From assembly GCA_963836845.1 (NCBI GenBank), contig CAWILK010000046.1:1582-65581 (forward strand): a stretch of DNA of 64,000 bases, given 5' to 3'. Made by a program: the position numbers and the translations under genes. Below are positions 4,013-62,084 of this stretch, in pieces. The notes beneath the pieces are model-generated. The model was not told the origin of the DNA. It searched no databases and saw nothing but the letters and a program-made list of their open reading frames with translations. Position 1 is the first letter of the stretch. Every line of letters begins with the position of its first letter. The stretch is from an uncultured Alphaproteobacteria bacterium (lineage in GTDB: Bacteria; Pseudomonadota; Alphaproteobacteria; ATCC43930; CGMCC-115725).

Positions 4013-4147
4013 ATCGCCTCTATCTAGCTTGAATTCTAGATTACAGCGTTCAACGGAACGCAGCAACCGCTGAGTTTCCCGGGGCGCGGTCACGCGCTAT
4101 AGTCGGCCTACGGCAGCAATTGGTGACATCGGGAGGAGTGAGAGCAA

Positions 4148-5380
4148 ATGGATGGAACTGGCGTCGAGCTGGATTGTCTCGAAGGCGTCAAGGTGGTCGA
4201 TTTCACGCAATTCGAGGCGGGTCCGTCCTGCACCGAAGCGCTCGCTTGGCTCGGCGCCGAGGTGGTCAAGATCGAGAACCCCAAAACCGGCGATCCCGGC
4301 CGGCGGTTGCAGCCTGGAAAGCCGGATGACGATCCCTGGTATTTTCACCAGTTCAATGCGAACAAGAAGTCGGTAACCCTCAATCTCAAATCGCCGCGCG
4401 GCCTGGAGATCGTCAAGGAGCTGCTTAAAGAAGGCCGACATCACGATCGAGAACATGGCGCCCGGCACGATCGAGCGACTGGGCCTCGGCTATGACGCCG
4501 TCAAGGAGCTGAACCCGGGGATCATTTATTGCCAGGTCAAGGGCTTTGGCACCGGAAGCCCTTACGAAAAAAATCTCGCCTTCGACATGATCGCGCAGGC
4601 GGCGGGCGGCACGACCAGCGTCACCGGTACGGCGACCGTCCGCCGGTCAAGCCGGGGCCGTCGTTCGGCGACACCGGCACCGGCATGCTGATGGCGATCA
4701 GCATCCTGGCCGCCCTGCGCAAGCGGACCGCACCGGCAAGGGACAGCGGCTGCAGGTCGCGATGCAGGACGCGATGATCCATTATATGCGGGTGCCGTTT
4801 TCACGCACCCAGCTGAGCGGCAAGGCCCAGCTTCGCGGCGGCAGCGACCGGTCGCAGCCCGGCGGGCTCGTGCCATCGGCTTTGTATCCGTGCAAGCCCG
4901 GCGGGCCCAACGATTATGTCTATGTATTCACCAGCCGCGCCAATCCGGAGCATTGGACCCGGCTTCTCAAGGTGATCGGCCGCGAGGATTTGGTCGGCGA
5001 CCCCCGCTACGAAACCAATCAGGCCCGCAGCGAACGCGCGGCCGAGGTCGACGAAATCATCGCCGCAATGGACGCGCCAGCACACCAAGGAAGAAGCGAT
5101 GAAGATCATCGGCGAGGCCGGGGTGCCGGCCGGTGCGGTGTTCGACACGCTCGAGCTGATGAACGATCCGTCGCTCGCCGAACGCGGGATCATGCAAGAC
5201 GATCGAGCACCCGACGACCGGCAAGGTAAGATGCCGGCCTGGCCGGTGCGCTTCGACGGCGCGCCGGCGAAGGTCAAGCCGTCGCCGCTGCTGGGCCAGC
5301 ACAACGCCGAAGTCTTGGGCCAATGGCTCGGCATCGCTGCCGGCGAGGTCGAGGCGCTGCGCGCCGAGGGTATCATCTGA
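4148..5380 (+). CDS. family III CoA-transferase (CaiB/BaiF), 4 apparent frameshifts (pseudogene or indel errors)
   Basis: ORFs 4148..4495, 4455..4691, 4529..4777, 4762..5229 and 5099..5380 tile a full-length homolog of the intact paralog at 6504..7703 (GVKVVDFTQFEAGPSCTEALAWLGAEVVKIENP...GFGTGSPYEKNLAFD...PGPSFGDTGTGML...YPCKPGGPNDYVYVFTSRANPEHW...WPVRFDG). Confidence 0.8.
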
Positions 5381-6463: not shown

Positions 6464-6503
6464 GGCTTGCGCACGTGCGCAGCGTTTCGGAAGGAGAACG
6501 CAA

Positions 6504-7703
6504 ATGGATGGAACGACCGTACCGCCGAATTGTCTCGCCGGCATCAAGGTGCTCGATCTGACGCAGTTCGAAGCCGGCACCAGCTGCACCGAGGCGCTCG
6601 CCTGGATGGGCGCCGATGTCGTCAAGGTGGAGAACCCCGAAGGCGGCGAGGCGGGGCGCCGGGGCGTGTCGGACCCCTATTACTTCATGGCGTACAACGC
6701 CAACAAACGGTCGATCACCGTAAACCTCAAATCCGAGCGCGGCTTGGCATTGGTCAAGGACATGGCCAAGCATGCCGATGTCTTTACCGAGAATTTCGGG
6801 CCGGGCGTGATCGAGCGGCTGGGTCTCGGCTATGACGTGATCAGCGCTCTCAACCCGCGCATCGTCTACGCCCAGGTCAAGGGCTTCGGGGTTGGCAGCC
6901 CCTATGAAAAGGGCCTGTGCTTTGATCCGATCGCCCAGGCTTGCGGCGGCGCGATGAGCATCACCGGGGAGCCCGGCGGAAAGCCGGTCAAGCCGGGGCC
7001 GACGATCGGCGACACCGGCACCGGGATGCTGCTCGCCTTCAGCATTGTCAGCGCGCTCTATCAGCGGGCCTCGACGGGCAAGGGCCGGCGGCTGCAAGCG
7101 GCGATGCAGGATTCGGTCATGCATTACAGCCGCGGCATGTTCATCAGACAGGCACAGACCGGCCAAGCTGCGCCGCGGCGGCCGGCGGGCGGCAATGCGC
7201 CGTCCGGGATTTTTCCGTGCAAGCCCGGCGGGCCCAACGACTACGTCTATCTGTTGACCAGCCGCGCCAATCCGGAGCATTGGCCGCGCCTGCTGAAACT
7301 GATCGGGCGGGAGGAGTTGATCGGCGATCCGCGCTACGACAAAGCCTCCGCCCGGGTGGAGCGCGAGGCCGAGGTCAATGAGATCATCGCCCAATGGACG
7401 CGCCAGCACACCAAGGAAGAGGCGATGGCGCTGATCAGCGGAGCCGGGGTACCGGCGGGTGCGGTGTTCGATTCGATGGAGCTGACCAACGAGCCGAGCT
7501 TTTACGAGCGCGGGATCCTGCAGAACATGCAGCACGGCGAGTGGAAAATGACGATGCCGACCTGGCCGGTGCGGTTCGACGGCAAGCCCGCACCGATCAA
7601 GCCGGCGCCGCTGTTGGGCGAGCACACCGCCGAGGCGCTCGGCGATTGGCTGGGCCTTAGCCCCGCCGAGGTCGAAACGCTGCGCACAAAAGGCGTCGTC
7701 TAG
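6504..7703 (+). CDS. family III CoA-transferase (CaiB/BaiF), intact
   Basis: Uninterrupted 399-aa ORF: GIKVLDLTQFEAGTSCTEALAWMGADVVKVENP...PGPTIGDTGTGML...FPCKPGGPNDYVYLLTSRANPEHW...WPVRFDGKPAPIKPAPLLGEHT. Confidence 0.9.
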   Translation: MDGTTVPPNCLAGIKVLDLTQFEAGTSCTEALAWMGADVVKVENPEGGEAGRRGVSDPYYFMAYNANKRSITVNLKSERGLALVKDMAKHADVFTENFGPGVIERLGLGYDVISALNPRIVYAQVKGFGVGSPYEKGLCFDPIAQACGGAMSITGEPGGKPVKPGPTIGDTGTGMLLAFSIVSALYQRASTGKGRRLQAAMQDSVMHYSRGMFIRQAQTGQAAPRRPAGGNAPSGIFPCKPGGPNDYVYLLTSRANPEHWPRLLKLIGREELIGDPRYDKASARVEREAEVNEIIAQWTRQHTKEEAMALISGAGVPAGAVFDSMELTNEPSFYERGILQNMQHGEWKMTMPTWPVRFDGKPAPIKPAPLLGEHTAEALGDWLGLSPAEVETLRTKGVV

Positions 7704-8085: not shown

Positions 8086-11465
<3,380 letters not shown>

Positions 11466-11594
11466 CGGCGATTATTCGCGTAGTGTCACGCGGCCGTCAA
11501 GCACGAGCCGAGAACCGCGAACCGACCCGATCTTTGTTTGCCCAAGCCCCCGCGCTAAGGTGCAGGATAGCTGAGCCCGCGAGGATCCCGACCG

Positions 11595-12836
11595 ATGAGC
11601 GTGCCGCAAAAGTCCTTCGAGCCGGGGGCGGCGTGCCCGCTCGACGGGATCAGGGTGATCGACATGTCGCGCCTCGTCTCGGGCAACATGGTCAGCCTGC
11701 AGCTCGCCGATTTCGGCGCCGAGGTGCTGAAGATCGAGGACCCGAAGCGCGGCGACCCGCTGCGCGCCTGGCAGACCGATGGCGTCAGCGTGCATTGGAA
11801 GGTCTATTCGCGCAACAAGAAGAGCGTGGCATTGAGCCTGCGGGAGCCGCGCGGCCGCGAATTGCTGCTCGATCTCGTCGACACCTCGCAGGTGCTGATC
11901 GAGAATTTCCGGCCCGGCACGCTGGAGGCGATGGGGCTCGGCCCCGAGCTGCTGCACCGGCGCAACCCCGGCCTGATCATCGTCCGGGTGTCGGGCTGGG
12001 GGCAGGACGGGCCCTACCGCGACCGCCCGGGCTTTGGCACCCTGGTCGAGAGCATGTCGGGCTATGCGGCGCGCACCGGCTTTCCCGACCGCGAGCCGGC
12101 CTTGCCGCCGACGGCGCTCGCCGACATGGTCGCCGGTCTCTACGGCGCGTGCAGTGTTCTCGTGGCGCTGCGGCATCGCGAGATCGGCGGGGGCAGGGGA
12201 CAGGTCATCGACCTGCCGTTGCTCGACCCGCTGTTCTCGTTCATTGCCACCGAGGCGGCGATCTACCGGCTGACGGGGACGGTGCGGCAGCGCACCGGCA
12301 GCCGCTCGGAGACGACCTCGCCGCGCAACGTCTTCCGCACCAGGGACGGGCGCTACATCGGCATCTCCGCCTCGATCCAGGCGATGGCCGAGCGGCTGTT
12401 CCGCGCGATCGGCCGGGAGGACATGATCACCGACCCGCGGTTTCGCACCAATAGCGACCGGGTGCGCAACGCCGAGGCCTGCGAGGCGCCGATCGTCGCC
12501 TTCATCGGCGCGCGGACTCTTGGCCGAGAACATGGAGATCTTCGAGCGCGGCCGAGGTCACCGCGGCGCCGGTCTACGACATCGACCAGTTCATGGCCGA
12601 CCCGCATGTGAATGCCCGCGAGATCCTGGTCGACCTGCCCGATGACGAGATCGGCGCGGTTGCCGATGCACAACATCATTCCCCGCCTGTCCGCGACCCC
12701 CGGCCGGCTGCGCCGCCCGGCGCCTCGGCTCGGCGAGCATACCGCGGAGATCCTGGGCTCGCTGGGCCTCGGCGCGGCCGAGATCGAGGCGCTGGCGAGC
12801 GAAGGCATCATCGGGATTGCAGGAGGCGCATCATGA
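11595..12836 (+). CDS. family III CoA-transferase (CaiB/BaiF, third and more distant paralog), about 2 apparent frameshifts near the 3' end
   Basis: ORF 11595..12611 (GIRVIDMSRLVSGNMVSLQLADFGAEVLKIEDP...RVSGWGQDGPYRDRPGFGTLVESMSG) continues through ...ENMEIFERAEVTAAPVYDIDQFMADPHVNAREILVDLPDDEIG into ORF 12612..12836 (...PMHNIIPRLSATPGRLRRPAPRLGEHTAEIL). Confidence 0.8.
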
Positions 12837-28176: not shown

Positions 28177-28350
28177 CTCTCCTCTCCCCCCGCCGGCCGG
28201 GGGGAGAGGGCAGGGTGAGGGGGGCCGACGGACCGGTTTGCGGCGCCGCCCACCTCACCTTCCCAGGCCCCACGGATTAAGTCCATGGGCTGAAGGCCCA
28301 CGTCGCACCTGGGCCCCTCCCTCTCCCCACTGAAGGGCGCAGAGGGGCTT
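28177..28350. repeat. GC-rich composite palindromic (REP-like) element, copy E2
   Basis: Hairpin CTCTCCCCCC-N7-GGGGGGAGAG (28182-28208), GGGTGAGG... / ...CCCACCTCACC boxes, and a second hairpin CCCTCTCCCC...AGAGGGG. It lies between the hydrolase and the FkbM gene. Confidence 0.6.
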
Positions 28351-28495
28351 TTCCTCGAAACCCATCCCGCCGAATTCTGCGCTTTTGGTTGAGCTGGCGG
28401 CGATGCTGCAGCCGAATTCGATTCCCCGGACAGCCCTGCGCTTTCGCGGGCATGACGATGAGGAGGGGTGGGAGCCGAATGTTAGAAGCCTACCA

Positions 28496-39466: not shown

Positions 39467-39770
39467 CCGTTTATGCCGCGTTGGTCGTGCGTGCGTCCCT
39501 GGCTCGGCTCTGCCGACTTTCGTCTGCCTGGAGCAATGCTCAGCCGCTGAGAGGAGGTCCAAGCTGTTGCGTGCAATCCCGGCTCGAGCTGTGAAGCAGA
39601 CTACTACGATCGCATGGACGCTCGCCTTCCGGCGTTGCCGGTCTGTCTCGGATTGAGCAGGGGCCGCCAACTCTGTTCCATTGTCTAAGCTGAACTCAGC
39701 CTGCAATGGTACGTCGCATATGTCGGGCGATTTTCGGTTCGATCAAACGAGCGGTATTGGCAGTCAAGCC

Positions 39771-39905
39771 ACCCGCACGGGTTGGCGCAGTCGAATACCG
39801 GCAGGTGCTCGGGTTTCAGGTGCGGCACCCTCCAAGGTCATCGCGCCGCAGCAATAGGCATTGTCGGCATCAATCTGGACCCTAGTGTAACCGAGCGTGG
39901 CGCCC
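39771..39905 (-). pseudogene. relic fragment of a second, diverged nrdJ copy (about 45 codons)
   Basis: 39781-39900 aligns by eye at roughly 80-85% identity with nrdJ nt 41690-41810 (gttggcgcagtcgaa.acc.gcaggtgctcggg.ttcag.tgcggc...ccctccaaggtcatcgcgccgcagcaata.gc.tt). The minus strand encodes ...[36 protein letters not shown] versus nrdJ ...[36 protein letters not shown]. Confidence 0.6.
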
Positions 39906-40172: not shown

Positions 40173-40610
40173 ATGGAACGGAATTTCGAATATCCGGCCA
40201 AAATCGAACAGGACGAGGCCGGTTTTTATCTCGTGACGTTCCCGAACTTTCCTGAAGCCGCGACGGACGCCCGCTCGTTGAATGAGGCGTTAGCCGCGGC
40301 GACCGACTGCCTGGAAGAGGCCGTCGCCAGCCGCATGAAACGCGGCGAGGATATACCCGCTCCGTCACCGGCCCAGAACGGCTCGGTTATCGTCGTATTA
40401 CCGGCGCTGTACGCAATGAAAGCGGCGCTCTACGACACCATGCGCAAGGAGCGGCTCTCGGAAACCGCTCTCGCGAGCAAGCTGCACAAGGGCGAAAAGG
40501 AGGTGCGCCGGCTTCTCGATCCTTCTCACGCAACCCGAACATCAGCCATAGAAACGGCGCTGCGCGTCATCGGGCAACGCGTCCGTGTTACCGTGGAGGA
40601 TATAGGCTAG
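40173..40610 (+). CDS. hicB: type II antitoxin HicB
   Basis: Intact 145-aa ORF: FEYPAKIEQDEAGFYLVTFPNFPEAATDARSLNEALAAATDCLEEAV... plus a C-terminal DNA-binding region. Confidence 0.85.
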   Translation: MERNFEYPAKIEQDEAGFYLVTFPNFPEAATDARSLNEALAAATDCLEEAVASRMKRGEDIPAPSPAQNGSVIVVLPALYAMKAALYDTMRKERLSETALASKLHKGEKEVRRLLDPSHATRTSAIETALRVIGQRVRVTVEDIG

Positions 40611-40628: not shown

Positions 40629-43600
40629 TTAACTACACCCGCTGGTCGCGCCGCAGGTGTCGCATTTGAGGCAGGTGCCGTTGCGGATCAGGGTGAAGTT
40701 GCCGCATTCGTCGCAGCTGTCGCCTTCGTAGCCCTTCATGCGGGCGGCGCGGATGCGTTCGAGGCGGAGGTCCCCTTCCGGCATCGGCGAGAGGGCGAGG
40801 GGGCCGTCGGTTTCGGGGTCGGAGAAGGCGAGGGCGGTGGCGCGGCCGGCGCCGCCGTCGAGCACGGTCAGCTTGTTGCGCACAAAGCCTTTGGGGGCGG
40901 CGCTCGGCGCATCAGGTTCGATTCGGCCTCGCCCTTGCCGACCGTGTCGGGCATCAGATCGCCGGGCTGGACATGGGCGAGGTCGCCGCGGTCGAGATAG
41001 GAGATCGCCAATTCGCGGAACAGGTAGTCGAGGATCGAGGTCGCCATCTTGATCGCGTCGTTGCCCTCGACGATCCCCGACGGCTCGAACCGGGTGAAGG
41101 TGAAGGCCTCGACAAACTCCTCCAACGGCACGCCGTATTGCAGGCCGATCGAGATCGCGATCGCGAAATTGTTCATCAAGGAGCGGAAGGCGGCACCCTC
41201 CTTGTGCATGTCGATGAAGACCTCGCCGAGCCCGCCGTCTTCGTATTCGCCGGTCCGCAGATAGACCTTGTGGCCGCCGACCACCGCCTTCTGGGTGTAG
41301 CCCTTGCGGCGGCTCGGCAGCCGCCGGCGGTCGCCGCGGCTGACGACGCGTTCGATGACCCGCTCGACGACGCGTTCGACGATCCGCTCGGCGACGAGCG
41401 GCGCGCGCGCCGCCGGCGATTGATCGAAGAGCTCCTCGGCTTCCTCGTCGTCGCCAAAAAGGCTCGAGGCCAGAGGCTGCGACAGCTTCGAGCCGTCGCG
41501 GTAGAGCGCGGTCGCCTTGAGGCCGAGGCGCCAGGACAGCATGTAGGCGTTCTTGCAGTCCTCGACCGTGGCGCCGTTCGGCATGTTGATCGTCTTGGAG
41601 ATCGCCCCCGAGATGAAGGGCTGGGCCGCCGCCAGCATCCGGATGTGGCTGTCGACCGACAATGCGCGGCGGCCGATGCGGCCGCACGGGTTGGCGCAGT
41701 CGAACACCGCCAGGTGCTCGGGCTTCAGATGCGGCGCGCCCTCCAAGGTCATCGCGCCGCAGCAATAAGCGTTGGCAGCGTCGATCTCGGCCCGGGCGAA
41801 GCCGAGCGCCGCCAACAGATCGAAGGCCGGATCATCGAGCGCGCCCGGCGCGATCCCCAGGCCTTCAATGCAAAACTCCTCGCCGAGCGTCCATTTGTTG
41901 AACGCGAATTTGATGTCGAAAGCGGAGGCGAGCGCCGCCTCGGCGGCGGCGAGCGACTGCGTCGTCGAAGCCCTTTTCCCGCAGGCTCTCGTGGTTGATG
42001 CCGGGCGCCCCGGCGAGCGTCCCGCGGCCCAACGCATAGCGCTCGATCGCGGCGATCTCGTTCGGCGCTCGTAGCCGAGTGTCGTCAATGCCTGCGGCAC
42101 CGCGCGGTTGATGATCTTGAAATAGCCGCCGCCGGCGAGCTTCTTGAATTTGACGAGCGCGAAATCGGGCTCGATCCCGGTCGTGTCGCAATCCATGACG
42201 AGCCCGATCGTGCCGGTCGGCGCGATCACCGTCGCCTGGGCGTTGCGGAAGCCGTGCTTCTCGCCGAGCGCCAGCGCCGTGTCCCAGCTGCGCCGCGCCG
42301 CCGCGGCGAGCTCCGGGTCGGGGCAGTTCGCCGCGTCGAGCGGCACCGGCGGGATCGACAGCCCCTCGTATTCTTCGCCCTCTCCGCCCTTAAGGGGGGA
42401 GAGGGAGGGGCCCGCGCGAAGCGTGGGAGGGTGAGGTGGGCGTCCGCCGTCGCTCGCAGCGCGTCGCCCCCACCTCACCCCGACCCTCTCCCCCCCGAGG
42501 GGCGGAGAGGGAGAGGTCTGCGGGGGCGGAGAGGGAGGAGGGGACCCGTGGGCGGCGCGGCGGTGGTTGCGGATGACCCGCAGCATCGCCTCGCGGTTCT
42601 CGGCAAAGCCGGGGAAGCGGGCCGAGCTCGCCCGCCATTTCGGCGGAGGCGGCATAGCTCGCGCCGGTCATCAATGCGGTGACCGCGCCGCCGAGCGCGC
42701 GGCCGGCGTCGCTGTCATAGGGGATGCCCATCGACATCAACAGCCCGCCGAGATTGGCGTAGCCGAGCCCCAAGGTGCGGAAATCGTAGGAGCGGCGCGC
42801 GATCTCCTTCGACGGGAACTGCGCCATCAGCACCGAGATTTCGAGGACGATCGTCCACAGCCGCACCGCATGCTCGAAGCCGGCGACATCGAAGCTCCCA
42901 TCCGCCCGGCGGAACGCCATCAGGTTGAGCGAGGCGAGGTTGCACGCCGTGTCGTCGAGGAAATTGTATTCCGAGCACGGGTTGGAGGCGTTGATCCGGC
43001 CGCTCGCGGGGCAGGTGTGCCATTCGTTGATCGTCGTGTCGAACTGCAGCCCGGGATCGGCCGAGGCCCAGGCGGCGTGGCCGATCTGCTCCCACAGATC
43101 GCGCGCCCGCAGGGTCTTGGCGACCTTGCCGTCGGTGCGGCGGGTCAATTCCCAGGCGCCGTCATGAAGGACACGTTCGAGAAAATCGTTCGAGACCCGC
43201 ACCGAATTGTTCGAGTTCTGTCCGGCTACGGTGACATAGGCCTCGGATTCCCAATCGGTGTCGTAGGTGCGGAACGCGATCGCGGTGTAGCCCTGGCGTG
43301 CGAACTGGATCACCCGCTGGATGTAGCTTTCCGGGATCATCGCCCGGCGGGCGGCGCGGATCTCCCGCTTCAGCGCCGGATTTGCCGCCGGATCGGCCCC
43401 GTCGCGGCAGGCCGCCATGATCAGGTTCAGGTGGCGGGCGGCGAGCCGCGAGCCCGGCGACGAGCGAGGCGACCTTCTGCTCCTCGACGACCTTCCAGTC
43501 GATAAAGGCCTCGATGTCGGGGTGGTCGATGTCGACAATCACCATCTTGGCGGCGCGCCGCGTCGTGCCGCCGGATTTGATCGCGCCGGCGGCGCGGTCG

Positions 43601-44396
43601 CCGATCCGCAGAAAGCTCATCAGCCCCGAGGAGCGGCCGCCGCCCGACAGCGGCTCGCCGTCGCCGCGAATCTTCGAGAAGTTCGAGCCCGAGCCGGAGC
43701 CGTATTTGAAGAGCCGCGCCTCGCGCACCCAGAGGTCCATGATGCCGCCCTCGTTGACGAGGTCGTCGGCGACCGACTGGATGAAGCAGGCATGCGGCTG
43801 CGGATGCTCGTAGGCGCTGCCCGAGGCGTGCAGCTCGCCGGTCTGGTGATCGACGTAGAAATGGCCTTGCGACGGGCCGTCGATGCCGTAGGCCCAGTAG
43901 AGCCCGGTGTTGAACCATTGCGGCGAGTTGGGCGCGCCGATCTGGCGCGCCAGCATCAGCCGGATCTCGTCGTAAAAGGCGCAGGCGTCCTCCTCGGCGT
44001 CGAAATAGCCGCCCTTCCAGCCCCAATAGGTCCAGGTCCCGGCCATCCGGTCGAAGACCTGCCGGGCGCTTGTTTCACCGCCGTGACGGGCGCTCTCGGC
44101 CAGCGCCGCGAGACCCGCCCCCCGCCTTCGCAGGCGTCGGCGGTGCGCCGCCACAGCCAGGGCGGAAGGCCCTGTTCCGCAACCGGCGCCAAGCGCGCGG
44201 GCACACCGGCTTTGCGGAAGTATTTCTGCGCAAGGATGTCGCAGGCCACCTGGCTCCACTCGGCCGGGACCTCAATTCCCTCGGCCTGGAAGACGACCGA
44301 GCCGTCGGGGTTGCGGATCTCGCTGCTGGCGGTCCGGAACGGAACCGCCGCGTAAGGATCCTTGCCGGCAATCGTAAAGCGACGCGTGATCTGCAT
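40629..44396 (-). CDS. nrdJ: adenosylcobalamin-dependent (class II) ribonucleoside-diphosphate reductase NrdJ, about 6 apparent frameshifts and one in-frame repeat insertion
   Basis: ORFs 43956..44396, 43162..44259, 42390..43538, 40868..42655 and 40629..41765 tile NrdJ: [21 protein letters not shown]... / ...[15 protein letters not shown]...ACFIQSV...[13 protein letters not shown] / ...[22 protein letters not shown] / ...[36 protein letters not shown]...ISKTINMPN...ALYRDGSK / ...C-terminal [28 protein letters not shown]. Confidence 0.9.
42371..42544. repeat. GC-rich composite palindromic (REP-like) element, copy E3, inside the nrdJ reading frame
   Basis: CCCTCTCCGCCCTTAAGGGGGGAGAGGGAGGGG...GGGAGGGTGAGGTGGG...CCCCCACCTCACCCCGACCCTCTCCCCCCCGAGGGGCGGAGAGGGAGAGG. 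It shares end and internal boxes, in the same orientation, with intergenic copy E5 (48218-48360). Confidence 0.65.
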
Positions 44397-44430
44397 TCTT
44401 GTCTCCGTTGCCGGCGACCTGCCGTATACC

Positions 44431-44478
44431 CGACCAGATCTAGTTGCTCATCACAACGATTTCACCCACATATAGCCT
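44431..44478 (-). promoter_or_regulatory. possible tandem NrdR boxes upstream of nrdJ
   Basis: The minus strand has aggCTATATgTgGgtg (44478..44463) and caaCTAgATcTgGtcg (44446..44431), each a roughly 9-10/16 match to acaCwAtATaTwGtgt. The starts are 32 bp apart, about 3 helical turns. Confidence 0.3.
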
Positions 44479-44604
44479 ATCCAAAGGGTGTCGACAACGT
44501 AATTTGTGGCTGTCGGACCATGGCGACACCACATGTTGCGGGTTTGCAACGCGCCGGCGGGGCTTTACGCCCGGCGGGAAGCGGTGCAATAAACCCGCTC
44601 GGCG

Positions 44605-45001
44605 ATGGCGAAGGCAGGGATGGAGGCGATGACGCTCGGCACGCGTCTGTTGACTTGGCTCCGCGGCGAGCTGGTCGGGACAGACAGCTTCGGCAACCGC
44701 TATTACCGCGAGAGGGCAGCCGGCCGCTGCGACGCGGCGGCGGCCGGCCAGCCGCGAGAAGCGCTGGGTGATCTACAATGGCGAGCCGGAGGCGTCGAAG
44801 GTGCCGTCGGAATGGCATGCCTGGCTGCATCACACGATCGACGAGCTGCCGAGGCCCGACCGCCCGCGCTATCCCTGGGAAAAACCGCATCAGCCGAACA
44901 TGACCGGCACGCCCTACGCCTATCACCCGCCGGGCTCGATCCTGCGCGGCGGGCGTCGCTCCCGGGCGACCGGGGATTACGAGCCGTGGACACCCGAATA
45001 G
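44605..45001 (+). CDS. NADH:ubiquinone oxidoreductase subunit NDUFA12 family protein, one apparent frameshift near 44750
   Basis: ...MTLGTRLLTWLRGELVGTDSFGNRYYRER joins ORF 44768..45001 (...WVIYNGEPEASKVPSEWHAWLHHTIDELP...HQPNMTGTPYAYHPPGS...YEPWTPE*). Confidence 0.8.
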
Positions 45002-45017
45002 CGCGGCAGCCCCGATC

Positions 45018-45512
45018 ATGACCGGAAATGTGATCGAGACCGTGATGGGCGGAGTGGTGCTGGTCGTCGCGGCGCTGTTCCTGTTCTTCGCCTACACGAC
45101 GAGCCAGGTCCGGGCGGTGCAGGGCTACCAGGTGACCGCGCAATTCGACCGGGTCGACGGGATCCGCGACGGCAGCGACGTCCGCATCGCCGGGGTCAAG
45201 GTCGGCTCGATCCTGTCGGAAAAGCTCAATCCGAAGACGTTTCTCGCCACGCTCAGCATGAGCATCGATCCGAGCTACAAGCTGCCGGACGATACGGTCG
45301 CGGAGATCGTTTCGGCGGGGCTGCTGGGCGACAGATACGTCGCGCTGGTGCCCGGCGGCTCGGAGCAGATGATCCCGGCCGGCGGGCAGATCAAATACAC
45401 CCAGTCCCCGGTCAGCCTCGAAAACCTGATCGGCCAGATGATCTTTTCGCAGCCGGGCGGTCAGAAAAAGCCGGGCGAGGGTGGCGAAGCGCCGCCGGCC
45501 CCTCCAAAATAG
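45018..45512 (+). CDS. mlaD: outer-membrane lipid asymmetry maintenance protein MlaD, intact
   Basis: 164-aa ORF with an N-terminal TM (VMGGVVLVVAALFLFFAY) and an MCE domain ...YQVTAQFDRVDGIRDGSDVRIAGVKVGSI...TVAEIVSAGLLGDRYVALVPG. Confidence 0.85.
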   Translation: MTGNVIETVMGGVVLVVAALFLFFAYTTSQVRAVQGYQVTAQFDRVDGIRDGSDVRIAGVKVGSILSEKLNPKTFLATLSMSIDPSYKLPDDTVAEIVSAGLLGDRYVALVPGGSEQMIPAGGQIKYTQSPVSLENLIGQMIFSQPGGQKKPGEGGEAPPAPPK

Positions 45513-45520
45513 AGGACGCT

Positions 45521-45745
45521 ATGTCCGACAGCGAAGCGGTCGATTTCCCGGTCTGGCGCACGCCTGAAGGCGAGCCCGTCTCGTGCGTCGAAAAGATCAA
45601 GGTGCTGAACGAGAACCTCGCGGAATTGCGCGAGCTCGCCCAGGAAGCGCTCGAAGACGCGGTATTGATGGGCTGCGACGAGGTACAGGTGCGCGAGGTG
45701 CTGACCGGGCTCGTCGGCAGCATCGTCAATCCCTACCGCAAGTGA
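45521..45745 (+). CDS. hypothetical small acidic protein (74 aa), intact
   Basis: MSDSEAVDFPVWRTPEGEPVSCVEKIKVLNENLAELRELAQEALEDAVLMGCDEVQVREVL... starts 9 nt after the mlaD stop. No family recognised. Confidence 0.5.
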   Translation: MSDSEAVDFPVWRTPEGEPVSCVEKIKVLNENLAELRELAQEALEDAVLMGCDEVQVREVLTGLVGSIVNPYRK

Positions 45746-45747
45746 GC

Positions 45748-45858
45748 GCCCCTCACCCTCCCGCTGGCGCGGGCCCCTCCCTCTCCCCGCAAGCGGGGCG
45801 AGGGGATACAAGCGCTCTCCCTCGCCCCGCTTGCGGGGAGAGGGTCGGGGTGAGGGGG
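45748..45858. repeat. GC-rich palindromic (REP-like) element, copy E4 (two units head to head)
   Basis: CCCCTCACCC...CCCTCTCCCCGCAAGCGGGGCGAGGGG-atacaagcg-CTCTCCCTCGCCCCGCTTGCGGGGAGAGGGTCGGGGTGAGGGG is a long imperfect palindrome. Confidence 0.65.
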
Positions 45859-46272
45859 CTGCTCGGTGCGGCGCTTCTGGCGATCGCGCTGACGGTCCCG
45901 GCTGCCGCGGAAACGACCCCGGAGCCGGTAGCGGAGTTGCAGGGCCTCGACAAGATCACCGCGCGCGTCTCGAAATTCGAGGCGCCGGTCGATGCGCCGG
46001 TGCGGTTCGGCACCTTGTCGGTCCGGGTCCGCGACTGCGAAAGAAGCCCGCCCGAGGAGACGCCGGAGAGCGCGGCCTTTGTCGAGATCGACGAGACGCG
46101 CCCGGGCGAAGCCACGGCAAGACGCGTGTTCAGCGGCTGGATGTTCGCCTCGAGCCCGGCGTTGTCGGCGCTGGAGCACCCGGTCTACGACGTCAACCTG
46201 CTCGACTGCAGGGCGGCGAGCGGGTCGCGGGAGAGCGCTTCCGGCAGCTCGGCGGGGAAGACTGCCCGGTAG
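45850..46272 (+). CDS. DUF2155 domain-containing periplasmic protein
   Basis: A GTG start gives (M)[25 protein letters not shown] (signal), then ...[54 protein letters not shown]...[28 protein letters not shown]. The 3' end is uncertain (convergent overlap with aat). Confidence 0.65.
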
Positions 46273-46845
46273 GCGAGCGCCTCGGCGAGCAGGCGGCGGT
46301 AGCGGGCGCGGCTGATTTCGACGCCGCCGAATTGCGCCAGATGCGGGGTCAGGAACTGGGTGTCGAGCAGGCGGTAGCCGCCGAGCCGCAGCCGGGCCGC
46401 CAGATGGACGAGGGCGGCCTTGCTCGCGTCGGTGGCGCGGCTGAACATGCTTTCACCGAAGAAGGCAGCTCCCAACGAGACGCCGTAGAGCCCGCCGACC
46501 AGCTCACCGCCGAACCACGCTTCGACGCTGTGCGCCGCCCCGCGGGCGAACAGCGCCGAATAGAGCTGCACGATCTCATCGTTGATCCAGGTATTGGGGC
46601 GCTTTTCGGTCGCCTCGGCGCAGCCGCTGCATGACCTCGCCGAAGGCGGTGTCGCAGCGGATTTCGAAGGCGCTGTGCCGCACCACGCGGCGGAGCCGGT
46701 GCGGCACGTGAAATCCGTCGAGCGGCAGGATGCCGCGGCGCCGCGGATCGACCCAGAACAGCTCGGGGTCGTCGGCCAATTCGGCCATCGGGAAGACCCC
46801 CGCGGCGTAGGCCGCGAGCAACAGGTCGGGGGTCAGCCGCAGCAC
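46185..46845 (-). CDS. aat: leucyl/phenylalanyl-tRNA--protein transferase, one apparent frameshift near 46600
   Basis: ORF 46576..46899 (...[50 protein letters not shown]...) joins ORF 46185..46571 (...[42 protein letters not shown]...[15 protein letters not shown]). GTG 46845 is the proposed start. Confidence 0.8.
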
Positions 46846-46858
46846 GGCTCGAATGCCG

Positions 46859-48206
46859 TCACCCCCGGTCTCCGACAAACCGCTCCAGCCAATGGACATC
46901 GTAATCGCCGTCGATGAACTCGGCGGCGGCGGCGAGGCGCTGATGCAGCGGGATCGTCGTCTCGATGCCGCCGATCACATACTCGTCGAGCGCGCGGCGC
47001 AGGCGCATCAGGCATTCGTTGCGGCTCTTGCCGTGGACGATCAGCTTGGAGATCAGGCTGTCGTAATGGGGCGGCACCTGGTAACCTTGGTAGAGCGCGC
47101 TGTCGACGCGCACCCCGAGGCCGCCCGGGGCATGGTAATCGGTCACCCGGCCGGGGGAGGGCAGGAAGGTCTGCGGGTCCTCGGCATTGATCCGGCATTC
47201 GATGGCGTGGCCGCACAGCCTGATATCCGATTGGCAATAGCCGAGCGGCGCGCCGGCGGCGATGCGGAGCTGCTCACAGACGATATCGATGCCGCTGACC
47301 ATCTCGGTGATCGGGTGCTCGACCTGCAGGCGGGTGTTCATCTCGATGAAAAAGAATTCGCCGTCCTGATATAGGAATTCGAGCGTGCCGGCGCTCTTGT
47401 AGCCGAGCTCGCGCAGCGCCGCGACGGCGAGCGCGCCGAGCTGATCGCGCTCCTCGCAATTCAACGCCGGGGAGGGGGTTTCCTCGAGCAATTTCTGGTG
47501 CGATCGCTGCAGCGAGCAGTCGCGCTCGCCGAGCTGGATGATCCCGCCCTGGCCGTCGCCGAGGATCTGGATCTCGATGTGCCGCGGCCGCTCCAGATGG
47601 CGTTCGAGATAGACCTCGCCGCTGCCGAAGAACGACATCGCCTCGTTCTGCGCAATCGGCAGCAGCCGGGCGAGCTCGGCGGGGTTGCGCGCCACCTTCA
47701 TGCCGCGCCCGCCGCCGCCCGCGGCGGCTTTGATCAGCACCGGGTAGCCGATGTCGCGAGGCCGCCGCCTCGGCCGCTGCCGCATCGCGCACCGCGCCGG
47801 CCGAGCCCGGCACGGTCGGGATGCCGAGCTGGCGCGCGGCCGCTTTGGCGGTCACCTTGTTGCCCATCAGCCGGATGTGCTCGGGGCGCGGGCCGATAAA
47901 GGCGAACCCATGCTCTTCGACCGTGGCGGCGAAATCGGCGTCTTCGGCGAGAAAGCCGAGACCCGGATGGATCGCGTCCGCGCCGGTGATCGCCGCGGCG
48001 GAGAGGATCGCCGCCACGTTGAGATAGCTGTCGCGGGCGGGCGGCGGCCCGATGCAGACGGTCTCGTCGGCCAGCCGCACATTCATCGCATCGGCATCCG
48101 CGGTCGAATGCACGGCGACGGTCTTGATCCCCATCTCGCGGCAGGCGCGATGGATCCGCAGCGCGATCTCGCCGCGATTGGCGATCAAAACCTTTTCGAA
48201 CATCAC
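46859..48206 (-). CDS. accC: acetyl-CoA carboxylase biotin carboxylase subunit, one apparent frameshift near 47760
   Basis: [41 protein letters not shown]... (ORF 47274..48206) joins ORF 46859..47785 (...[20 protein letters not shown]...[22 protein letters not shown]...ECRINAEDP...). Confidence 0.9.
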
Positions 48207-48217
48207 TGCGCAATACG

Positions 48218-48360
48218 CCCTCTCCGCCCTTTAGGGGGGAGAGGGAGGGGACCCGTCGCGTCGAGCGGCGGGGAGGGTGAGGTGGGTTGGGCCGTTCGCG
48301 ACGGCGGCTCCCCCCGCCTCACCCCGACCCTCTCCACCCCCAGGGGTGGAGAGGGAGAAG
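48218..48360. repeat. GC-rich composite palindromic (REP-like) element, copy E5
   Basis: CCCTCTCCGCCCTTTAGGGGGGAGAGGGAGGGGACCC...GGGAGGGTGAGGTGGG...CCGCCTCACCCCGACCCTCTCCACCCCCAGGGGTGGAGAGGGAGAAG lies immediately upstream of accC. Confidence 0.65.
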
Positions 48361-48645
48361 TCGAGTTCTCTGCGTATCGTCTCCAATACGCCCGCAAGTT
48401 TCTCCATCACATCCCCGTTCCAGAACCGGATGACCCGGTAACCGCGGCGGACGATTTCCAGGCTGCGTGCCTCGATCCGCATCGTGCCGAATCGCGTGCT
48501 GTCCGCCATCCAACTCGATCGCCAGCTTCGCGGTCGGACAGGCGAAGTCGACGATGTGCCTGCCGATAGGGTGCTGGCGTCGAAAGCGGACAGAGGTGAC
48601 CACCTCTCGCAGCTCGCGCCAGAGCCGTTTCTCGGCCTCCGTCAT
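48231..48645 (-). CDS. DUF559 (endonuclease-like) domain protein, one apparent frameshift; C-terminus runs into the repeat
   Basis: ORF 48319..48645 (MTEAEKRLWRELREVVTSVRFRRQHPIGRHIVDFACPTAKLAIELDGGQH) joins ORF 48231..48509 (...RIEARSLEIVRRGYRVIRFWNGDVMEKLAGVLETIRRELD...), then repeat-encoded GGGEGRGEAGG... Confidence 0.65.
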
Positions 48646-48690
48646 GTCCCGACGCAGACGCCGGCGAGCTCTTCCTCGCGCGCTCCCTGA

Positions 48691-49141
48691 TCACTCGATC
48701 AGCATCAGGGGAGCGCCATACTCGACGGGCTGGGCGTCGGCAACGAAGATCTGCGTGATGCGGCCGGAACGGTGCGCGCGGATCTGATTCATCACCTTCA
48801 TCGCCTCGATGATCAGCAGCGGCTGGCCTTCCGCGACCGAATCGCCGAGGCGGACGAAGGGCGGGTCGCCCGGCTGCGGGGCGAGATAGGCGGTTCCGAC
48901 CATCGGCGCCTTGACCGTGCCGGGATGCTCGACGGGCACCGCGGAGGCGGGGAGGGGAGAGAAGGGCGCTGCGGCGGGAACGGCCGCCGGCGCCGATCCG
49001 GCGGGTACGCGCGCGATACGGATCCGCCGGTCCGCCGATCGCGTATTCGATCTCGGTCAGGCCGGTTTCGGTTAGGAGAGCCGCCAGGGTGCGGATCAGT
49101 TCGGCGTCGGGAAAAGGCGGGCTGCGGCCGCCTATTTTCAC
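48691..49141 (-). CDS. accB: acetyl-CoA carboxylase biotin carboxyl carrier protein, 1-2 apparent frameshifts
   Basis: A GTG start gives (M)[36 protein letters not shown]..., then ORF 48691..48939: ...[58 protein letters not shown] (biotinyl-lysine EAMKVMN motif). Confidence 0.85.
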
Positions 49142-49596
49142 TGATCCGCCTCGCCCGCTTCGCCCTCGATCAGGCTCGCGACCGCGTCGAGCGCGAGCTC
49201 GTAGCCCTGCGGCCCCAACCCGCAGATCACCCCGTTCGCCGCGAGGCTGACATAGGAGTGGTGGCGAAAGCTCTCGCGCCGGAAGATGTTCGACAGATGC
49301 ACTTCGACGAGCGGCAGCGCCGCCGCCGACAGCGCATCGAATATCGCGACCGAAGTGTGGGTCAGCGCTCCGGCATTGAGGATGATCCCGTCGGCCGATT
49401 CTCGGGCCTCCTGGATCCAGTCGACCAGCTGGCCCTCATGATTGGTCTGGCGAAACTCGATCTGCACATCGAGCGCCGCGGCGCGGGCCAGGCACCGCTC
49501 CTCGATGTCGGCCAGAGTGTCGTGGCCGTAGACCGCCGGCTCCCGAACGCCGAGCAGGTTCAGATTGGGACCGTTCAGGATGAAGACCGTAGCCAA
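49138..49596 (-). CDS. aroQ: type II 3-dehydroquinate dehydratase, intact
   Basis: [32 protein letters not shown]...[17 protein letters not shown]...[19 protein letters not shown]...[19 protein letters not shown]. The stop overlaps the accB GTG (GTGA). Confidence 0.9.
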
Positions 49597-59682: not shown

Positions 59683-62084
59683 TCACGCAACGTTCCGTGG
59701 ACGGGGCGACCGCTTCCGTGACCGCCGTCCAATCTCGGCGTGCGTCTCGTCCCTCCGGGTCTCGACGATGCAAATCCAATCGGGCGGCCAGACAGAAGTG
59801 GTGACCGCCAGGCACGCGTTCCAAGCCGATACCGCCTCCTCCAGACGCGCCGTCCCGCTCGCGCGCCCGCCCAATTCCGAGAGCGCGTTGCCAAGGTTCA
59901 TCTGCGTCATCGCCCAGTCGAGTGGTGCCCGATCTCGCGTCCTTTCCTCTAGCGCCGTCCGATAGGCGGCAACCGCTTCCTCCAGACGCGCCGTCCCGCT
60001 CTCCCGCTCACCCAGACTCTCAAGGGCAGTGCCGAGGTTCATCTGCGTCATCGCCCATTGAAGCGGCACCCGATCGCGCGTCGTTTCCTCCAGCGCCGCG
60101 CGAAACGCCGCCACCGCCTCCTCCAGACGCGTTGTCCCCTTCTCCCGCGCGCCGAGTGTCGAGAGCGCCGCACCGAGGTTCATCTGCGTCATCGCCCATT
60201 GGAGCGGAACCCGGTCGCGCGTCCTTTCTTCCAGCGCCGCCCGGAACGCTACGACCAATTCCTCGAGACGCGCCGTCCCACTCTCACATTCGCCAAGATT
60301 CACAAGCGCGCTGCCAAGGTTAACCTGCGTCATCGCCCATTGTAGCGGCACCCGATTGCGCGGCATCTCCTCCTAGCGCCGCGCGAAACGCCGCCACCGC
60401 CTCCTCCAGATGCACCGTCCCGCTCTCACGCGCGCTCAGCATCGAGAGCGCGGAGCCGAGGTTCACCTGCGTCATCGCCCAATCACGCGGTACCCGATCG
60501 CGCGGCGTCTCCTCCAACGCCGCGCGAAACGCCGCCACTGCCTCCTTCAGGCGCGCCGTCCCGCTCTCGCGCGCGCCCAACATCGAGACCGCACAGCCGA
60601 GGTTCACCTGCGTCATTGCCCAATCACGCGGCGCCTGCTCGCGCTTCGTCTCCTCGAGCGCCGCGCGAAATGCGACTACCGCCTCTTCGAGACGCGTCGT
60701 TCCGCTCTCCCGCTCGCCTAGTCTCCACAGTGCTGTGCCGAGATTGCTTTGCGTCATCGCCCATTGGAGCGGTACGTGATGGCGCGTTCTTTCCTCCAAA
60801 GCCGCGCGATACGCTGCGACTGCTTCGTCCAGACGCGCCGTCCCGCTCTCACGCTCGCCAAGCGTCGCAAGGGCGGAGCCGAGGTTGTTTTGAGTCGTCG
60901 CCCAGTAGAGCGGTACCCGATCGCGCGGTAGCAGTTCGAGCGCGCGGCTGTAGAGTGGGATTGCCTCCTGCAATACCGTGTTGTCCCCGCGTTCCTCACC
61001 TTCGCGCTGCATCGCGTCGGCTTGTCGCCGGAGCAGGATGCCCTTCTCGTTCGGCTCTCCGCTGGGCACCAGCAACGCGGCCTCCCCAAATAGCTGCGCG
61101 GCCTCTGCATATTCCAGCGCCGTCAGGGCCAGTTCCGCTTCGGCCGCCACGGCTCGAGCAGCCTGGAGCATCTGTTTTTCTGCTGCTGCTTCCGCCTCCC
61201 TAGCGAGCCGCCGCGCCTCAGCGGCCGCCGCTTCCGCTGCAGCTCGCGCCGCCTGAAGATGACGCCGAGCTTCGTTTCGATCGCCTGAGGCCGCTGCCTG
61301 CGAAGCCTTTGCCGCATGCTCCTGCGCGACAGGGTTCTCCGGATCCAGGGCGGCAATCGCCGCAGCTGCCTTGCGATAATGCTGGAAAACCTCGGCCAGC
61401 TTCTCGGCCAACCGTTCCTCCGGGACCTCCGCCTGACCGAGGGTAGCGAGCATCGTTCGCATCGCCCCCTGCGTCACGCCAAGCCGGCGACTGACCTCGG
61501 CAACCTTCTCGTCCGCTCCCCTCGTCGCGGCTTCGATCAGCATTCGCACCTGCTCGGCCGTAAAGCCGACCGAGAGGTGTTCACCCTGCAGGACTGTCGC
61601 ACCCGCTCCGACATCGCCGATGAGGTAGCGCGACGCACCGGAGGGCATATCGCTAGCTACAAATGGGGCGATCGCCGCCTTGGTCGCTGCCTCGGTCACG
61701 GTGCCAAGGGTCTTCTGCGCCGCCTCGCTCTTCACGATCTCGCCGAGCGCACCGCCCACCCAGGACGCGGTGGCGCCAAACCACGATTTCGCGTCCAGCA
61801 ATGCGCGGCGCAGAGTAGTCGGCAATTCCTGGACCTTGGCAATTCCCTCGGCGACCGCCTTGGTCTTGTCTAGGGCAAGTGCGCGCGTGTCCTCGTCGAG
61901 CGACGCATCCTCGGCTATCCGCTTCAGCAGCGAGTCGAATTGCCGAATGAGCGATTCCCCGCTCGGCAGGCTCGCGACCCCCTCGAACCCAGGAAATATT
62001 TTCGCCCTGCGCAACGCGCGCGCCGGCCCCGACATTGCCCATCTGATAGCTGCGTTCCGCAGCAGGTTTTGGCTCATCGGGCAT
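59683..62084 (-). CDS. large repeat protein: uncharacterised N-terminal region, Ala-rich coiled-coil-like segment, and eight 47-residue TPR-like helical repeats; 2 apparent frameshifts
   Basis: ORF 61653..62084 start (MPDEPKPAAERSYQMGNVGAGARVAQGENISWV) joins ORF 60320..62077 near 61985 and ORF 59683..60366 near 60360. The repeat unit is RDRVPLQWAMTQMNLGxALxxLGERESGTARLEEAVAAFRAALEExT. Confidence 0.75.
59790..60930 (-). repeat. tandem array of eight 141-bp coding repeats
   Basis: The marker (a/c)(t/c)ctgcgtcatcgccca recurs at 59900, 60041, 60182, 60323, 60465, 60606, 60747 and 60888. The period is 141 bp, except one 142-bp interval that coincides with the frameshift near 60360. Confidence 0.75.

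Follow-up and report, generated by a model that had tools for sequence, protein, structure and literature searches.

The minus strand of a 64,000-nucleotide (nt) stretch of contig CAWILK010000046.1 from an uncultured alphaproteobacterium (the window, to which all coordinates refer unless another sequence is named) encodes at 40629-44396 the class II adenosylcobalamin-dependent ribonucleotide reductase (RNR) NrdJ, and within this gene lies a block of 58 codons (42371-42544) that in all likelihood represents a real and tolerated in-frame insertion of a composite repeat, akin to repetitive extragenic palindromes (REPs) and bacterial interspersed mosaic elements (BIMEs), into a linker of the enzyme. 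An open reading frame (ORF) at 40868-42655 on the minus strand runs through the block and through NrdJ sequence on both sides in a single frame, bearing out the initial annotation, which had placed a 58-codon block between two NrdJ-like segments at this position. The codons descend from 42544 to 42371 and specify a Pro/Gly/Ser/Arg-rich peptide between ...RNHRRAAHG and YEGLS... of NrdJ. The further claim of an uninterrupted frame holds locally, through the block, but not for nrdJ as a whole, which is cut up by seven small insertions or deletions (indels; see below). Repeat-derived DNA occupies ~42376-42544, and the net gain amounts to 54 residues rather than 58 when measured against insert-free homologues, which carry a 4-residue linker. 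A scan of 42100-42800 for terminators and promoters returned nothing, and no terminator lies in or adjoining the block.

The segment is missing from most NrdJ orthologues

The product of nrdJ, after correction of the frameshifts, aligned to residues 1-619 and 623-925 of PDB 7b9q (for which we found no paper), with the block falling between residues 619 and 622/623. The 4-residue linker (AAHG-xxxx-YEG) is present in 113 of the 120 best database homologues and in 7b9q itself, so that orthologues do lack the roughly 58 residues in question, and among 80 species-representative genomes only one, the metagenome-assembled genome (MAG) L023, has extra residues at the site. The relatives had been taken to be Hyphomicrobiales, but the nearest named ones belong to the Stellaceae/Allostellaceae (Rhodospirillales). 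An intein was rejected as the source of the block, as the 54 low-complexity residues compare with at least ~130 required and the peptide is not conserved between lineages; in the corresponding product of a soil metagenome contig (L097, see below), Pfam recognised only RNR domains and a below-cutoff TACO1_YebC_N, and no other domain.

Shorter or unrelated additions were seen in other NrdJ homologues. Homologue P0014 (contig L202) has seven extra residues at the same site (AAHG-ESEPALAKAGG-YEG), with a small palindrome, GCCCTTGCGAAGGC, in the DNA that may be the footprint of a lost element. A different GC-rich palindromic element, which includes TLSPSPRGRGEGALQDAQIRGKAPSPGSQERSDLSPQAGRGKEK, is inserted in frame into another nrdJ loop, after NLLTF, in a Sphingomonadaceae MAG (L055, 2255-2400), and L049, L073 and L004 likewise have extra residues at the NLLTF loop.

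The block belongs to a composite palindromic repeat family

Pattern searches and a family alignment resolved the block into an ordered series of parts: hairpin A (CCCTCTCCGCCCTTAAGGGGGGAGAGGG, 42378-42405, translated on the gene strand), hairpin C (CCCGCGCGAAGCGTGGG, 42411-42427), a box (GGGTGAGGTGGG, 42429-42440), a spacer, box' (CCCACCTCACCC, 42469-42480), which is the exact complement of the box and pairs with it, and hairpin B (CCCTCTCCCCCCCGAGGGGCGGAGAGGG, 42484-42511), followed at the gene-upstream junction by an extra half-arm with a second copy of GGAGAGGG (42519-42544). Hairpins A and B span 28 nt each and are built as CCCTCTCC-N-GGAGAGGG, and the pattern CCCTCTCC-N4-14-GGAGAGGG occurs four times in the window (at 42378, 42484, 48218 and 48328) versus never in 100 shuffles. 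All four helices align collinearly between the block and 36 other copies, and the block has the same orientation as a full-length intergenic copy at 48216-48362 and as 34 further copies from related DNA, so the earlier assignment of the block to this repeat family, co-oriented with that copy, is upheld by both the alignment and the hairpin counts. The 37-copy alignment yields a consensus of ~137 nt in which hairpins A and B and the 11-bp box-box' helix are nearly invariant, and pair counts in hairpin C revealed compensatory changes at three pairs (15, 6 and 6 sequences altered on both sides), that is, a covarying helix. As RNA, the nrdJ copy has a predicted minimum free energy of -120.9 kcal/mol (z = -3.2), the arms of hairpin B pairing with those of hairpin A into one long stem-loop. 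When the whole window and the block alone were scanned against Rfam, the element matched no family at gathering score and drew only sub-threshold microRNA hairpins.

Four related copies reside in these 64 kb, three of them intergenic. The full-length copy at 48216-48362 lies between co-directional genes and has an orthologous copy in L023 (4620-4765); a related copy at 45746-45852, just upstream of a gene, has its half-elements in reverse order; and a more divergent relative lies between genes at 28213-28353. Beyond the window, at least 120 metagenome stretches match the exact 22-nt core of the family, and 49 of 81 occurrences examined contain the complete series from hairpin A through box and box' to hairpin B, the reverse order of half-elements recurring in copies within imuA. 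In soil Alphaproteobacteria the family is abundant and resides for the most part between genes. No target-site duplication emerged from 52 full copies, whose flank matches were distributed like those of shuffled pairs.

These comparisons bear on the notion that NrdJ natively possesses a lineage-specific linker of low complexity here, resembling the repeats through composition alone, a notion to which we attach almost no credence. Loop length does vary in a few homologues (by seven residues in P0014, and by five or 11 nearby in others), but the block matches intergenic copies base for base over four helices and both boxes, its peptide is wholly different among lineages since the frame differs, and the segment is absent from the 113 homologues with the short linker.

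Independent assemblies carry the element at the same codon

Three relatives bear inserts that match the window's in codon position and orientation, as determined by alignment of the junctions. L023 is syntenic with window positions 40636-49581 at 81-88% nucleotide identity, and its nrdJ is an intact ORF of 1219 amino acids (aa) with 22 extra residues, the insert DNA consisting of hairpin B and box', or half of the element. The soil metagenome contig L097 has the full composite in frame, adding 47 residues with RNR Pfam domains on either side, and L081, a Stellaceae MAG contig that encodes homologue P0026, has 31 extra residues made up of half-arm, hairpin B and box'. The left junction is common to L097 and L023; the extra half-arm is common to the window and L081 and missing from L023 and L097; and the right half is common to the window and L097.

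The initial annotation had cautioned that repeats are classic sites of misassembly, and this assembly is demonstrably error-prone. That a repeat-mediated chimera placed an intergenic copy into nrdJ is nonetheless highly improbable: the flanks are contiguous nrdJ in correct order and frame, and L023, L097 and L081 are independent assemblies from other samples with the same element at the same codon, which therefore excludes misassembly for the insertion as such. Taken together with the orthologues that lack the segment, the intact L023 gene supports the core of the earlier reading, namely a palindromic repeat inserted in frame into NrdJ and tolerated there as are those of Rickettsia.

The inserts differ in how they are read. 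Hairpin B is translated as ..LSAP(W/G)GGEGRGEVG.. in L023, L097 and L081, whereas the window reads it one base out of phase; in the phase of the other lineages the loop of the window's hairpin A (TTAA) would give an in-frame stop, and L097 has TGA there, out of frame. Each lineage keeps its ORF open by its own combination of lengths, which argues for selection on NrdJ function and against a role of the peptide sequence. Since the core of the element is translated in different frames, the constraint falls on the nucleic acid and not on the peptide; the insert peptide appears to be a passenger, the conserved entity being the DNA or RNA sequence of the element, and the insert-containing protein is presumably active.

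Frameshifts in nrdJ most likely stem from the assembly

Relative to the intact L023 orthologue, nrdJ in the window has seven indels, at 44123 (-1), 43455, 42618, 42070, 42062 and 41960 (+1 each) and 40905 (+2), that leave the gene in six or more frame pieces; the one closest to the block lies 74 nt upstream of it. Two other housekeeping genes on the minus strand are similarly affected, thiC (8086-11285, three pieces) and accC, encoding biotin carboxylase (46859-48206, two pieces), and genes neighbouring nrdJ also show +1 indels relative to L023. Once the frameshifts are corrected, comparison of nrdJ with L023 gives a dN/dS (ratio of nonsynonymous to synonymous substitution rates) of 0.14 and zero internal stops. 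Because thiC and accC are split too and the corrected dN/dS is 0.14, the nrdJ frameshifts most likely reflect errors of assembly, not a decaying gene, and nrdJ is most likely intact in the organism.

A decaying pseudogene, in which the insertion is merely unpurged and not tolerated, would account for seven frameshifting indels in 3.8 kb and for a gene that no single ORF covers. We consider it improbable, as the same type of indel splits thiC and accC and affects the neighbouring genes, the indels in the window are nearly all +1 insertions (an error signature), the corrected gene has that low dN/dS and is free of internal stops, and insert-bearing orthologues are intact. With such frequent single-base indels, annotation of this assembly calls for caution.

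Two further observations concern these loci. A relic fragment of nrdJ, corresponding to residues ~837-890 (66-77% identical) and itself frameshifted, is found at 39742-39901 (minus), ~730 nt downstream of the nrdJ stop and past a gene for a HicB-like antitoxin (40173-40610, plus). A thiamine pyrophosphate (TPP) riboswitch (RF00059, 71.7 bits) lies at 11351-11469 (minus), upstream of the fragmented thiC.

Distribution, mobility and structural setting of the insertion

In a neighbour-joining (NJ) tree built from 256 columns, the window, L023 and L097 fall into a clade (78% bootstrap) with the insert-free P0001, P0004, P0012, P0017 and P0091, and the insert-bearing P0026 pairs with the insert-free P0002 (82%); support inside the key clade is low. 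Close to nrdJ, the reverse-order copy at 45746-45852 is replaced by 2 nt in L023, a pair of filled and empty sites. From this pair and the patchy distribution we infer present or past mobility of the element; a mechanism of the IS200/IS605-RAYT type (RAYT, REP-associated tyrosine transposase) would be in keeping with the missing target-site duplication.

An AlphaFold2 (AF2) model of corrected residues 1-956 has a helix at 575-594 (predicted local distance difference test, pLDDT, 84-90), coil at 597-651 (pLDDT 33-39) and a second helix at 672-692 (pLDDT 92-95). The model fits an insertion site in an inter-helix linker, and the insert is predicted, with low confidence, to be unstructured. A repeat copy would have come to lie directly after the Gly codon of ...RNHRRAAHG, in a short linker between two helices; it would be translated as a Pro/Gly/Ser/Arg-rich stretch that the enzyme tolerates, and in related lineages the ORF continues through the element, whether complete or truncated, although the element is read in different frames.

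Several points weigh against an in-frame, tolerated insertion of an element that is or was mobile. The window itself has no intact nrdJ ORF, so tolerance in this organism is deduced from what the relatives and the error pattern show. The 73-nt right half and the 23-nt half-arm of the window's copy are without read-level support; the former matches L097 in sequence, not in junction, and the latter is shared with L081. To explain the patchy distribution, the element must have been lost precisely several times or gained repeatedly at a single codon. Overall the AF2 model is of poor quality, with a mean pLDDT of 52, local information alone having been used, and the near-invariance of the element's core, described below, is unlike that of a purely neutral passenger.

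In-frame copies recur in genes of DNA synthesis and repair

Copies elsewhere extend the picture from nrdJ to other genes. The initial annotation had raised the matter of further intragenic copies, and these exist among metagenome sequences, eight of 122 sampled occurrences lying in frame inside recognisable genes (the other 114 were not detected as such), whereas the other copies in the window are all intergenic. Besides nrdJ (L097), the hosts encode ImuA-like proteins (L113, L124, L158 and L190), the error-prone DNA polymerase DnaE2 (L180), an AcrB-family resistance-nodulation-division (RND) pump (L146) and a MiaB-like radical S-adenosylmethionine (SAM) protein (L142), and the four imuA copies share one conserved site. 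Two candidates based on GC content at third codon positions (GC3), L116 and L161, proved on inspection to be spurious ORFs.

The core of the element is nearly invariant

The box' and hairpin B form a 45-nt core, CCCTCTCCGCCCCTnGGGGGGGAGAGGGTCGGGGTGAGGTGGGGG, common to all four nrdJ inserts, in which 44-45 of the 45 positions are identical in every pair among the window, L023, L097 and L081. Across the 336 nt of flanking nrdJ, identity amounts to 82-90% in total and to 63-79% when third positions alone are counted. Variable columns number one of 45 in the core versus 53 of 112 (47%) among third positions (Fisher p = 5e-9) and 26 of 224 (12%) among first and second positions (p = 0.06). The box' is retained even in L023 and L081, where the box with which it would pair is missing. 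Such conservation may stem from selection acting on DNA or RNA, from conversion by other copies of the repeat or from turnover.

An alternative to a tolerated passenger is that selection acting on DNA or RNA maintains the element within the gene, be it as a site where a protein specific to the family would bind, as an RNA structure influencing how nrdJ mRNA is processed or translated, or as a unit that is still active, excising from and returning to exactly this codon. We regard it as possible but rather unlikely. The scarcity of variable core columns compared with all codon positions, conservation that holds whatever the reading frame, persistence of box' after loss of its partner, covariation of hairpin C over the family, the stable predicted fold of the RNA, the patchy presence and absence on the tree, and the recurrence of in-frame copies in imuA (four loci), dnaE2 and nrdJ would all agree with it. 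Gene conversion from the many genomic copies could, however, hold the consensus without any function at nrdJ, most close relatives are insert-free, and the tree is poorly resolved. It is likewise doubtful, though conceivable, that the nrdJ copy is no fossil but a nucleic-acid module under active maintenance, which selection or a dedicated recognition protein would hold near the family consensus and which closely related lineages would gain and lose at exactly one codon, and that the family has a genuine preference for genes of DNA synthesis and repair (nrdJ, imuA, dnaE2); if true, this would link the spread of these REP-like elements to single-stranded DNA or SOS-type transactions.

Other repeats in the window

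Two further sets of repeats were noted. Six tandem units of ~141 nt, 72-78% identical to the reference copy, occupy 59825-60971 and probably belong to a repeat-containing gene. Adjacent paralogous genes with 70-80% nucleotide identity lie at 4144-5378 and 6500-7701, with a third, weaker relative at 11702-11758.

Relation to known palindromic elements

Like REPs and BIMEs in general, the family consists of repeated short GC-rich palindromes that are mostly intergenic and of inverted units joined into composites. That in-frame insertion should be new for this type of repeat, as the initial annotation had suspected, stands insofar as a literature search with sequence strings of the element found no paper on the family, but not for REPs at large, in other families of which intragenic insertion is recognised (PMC3733652, PMC3184786).

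Rickettsia palindromic elements (RPEs; Ogata et al. 2000) are described as repeats of ~100-150 nt that occupy intergenic DNA and also, in frame, conserved genes (PMC3733652, PMC3184786). The element is like them in that the host ORF stays open in both cases and a few dozen residues are added: an in-frame insert in an intact ORF is found in the 1219-aa gene of L023, the inserts of L097 and L081 are in frame, and the window is open locally only. Unlike RPEs, the element has free-living, GC-rich soil Alphaproteobacteria as hosts; sister lineages translate the nrdJ copy in differing frames, and its nucleotide sequence varies less than do silent sites of the flanks.

The GTAG and CGTC REPs (Di Nocera et al. 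2013) offer a second parallel. A minority of them lie wholly inside ORFs, many in DNA synthesis and repair genes including dnaE2, and encode 20-82 residues (20-30 for dimers and up to 82 for clusters; PMC3733652). They too are short GC-rich hairpins, often in dimers of opposite orientation and mostly intergenic, and DNA synthesis and repair genes (here nrdJ, imuA and dnaE2) are hosts of both; nrdJ as a host was not encountered in the main text or searchable supplements of PMC3733652. Unlike these REPs, the present family is a composite of four helices in fixed arrangement, includes two conserved boxes outside the hairpins and lacks a conserved tag: no GTAG/CGTC stem-end tag is conserved in the 37-copy alignment, the flanks of hairpins A and B being variable or AGA/AGT, and CGTC occurs inside hairpin C in many copies, at a covarying position. 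Br-REP1 and Br-REP2 of Bradyrhizobium were rejected as relatives, their sequences being different.

As far as the consulted parts of PMC2817692 and PMC3116915 go, BIMEs and REPINs are pairs of REPs mobilised by RAYT transposases, and the element resembles them in its inverted palindromic units with a spacer, high copy number and lack of target-site duplication; it differs in that mobilisation of the present family is an indirect deduction. [quoted passage not shown] The element behaves like an RPE or an intragenic REP dimer.

The points of interest are its retention in several lineages, the differing frames, the strong nucleotide conservation and the recurrence in DNA synthesis and repair genes. 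The four insert-bearing lineages amount to a natural experiment, with one DNA read in two frames and in full and shortened versions, in which constraint on the nucleic acid can be told apart from that on the peptide. The insertion marks a permissive loop in NrdJ and reminds annotators that low-complexity inserts in conserved proteins can be genuine. Rickettsia offers the best-known case of intragenic palindromes, and catalogues of them exist for GTAG and CGTC REPs; the nrdJ insertion extends such selfish palindromic DNA in genes to a widespread, unnamed family of free-living soil Alphaproteobacteria, and the hosts now include a central enzyme in the synthesis of DNA precursors.

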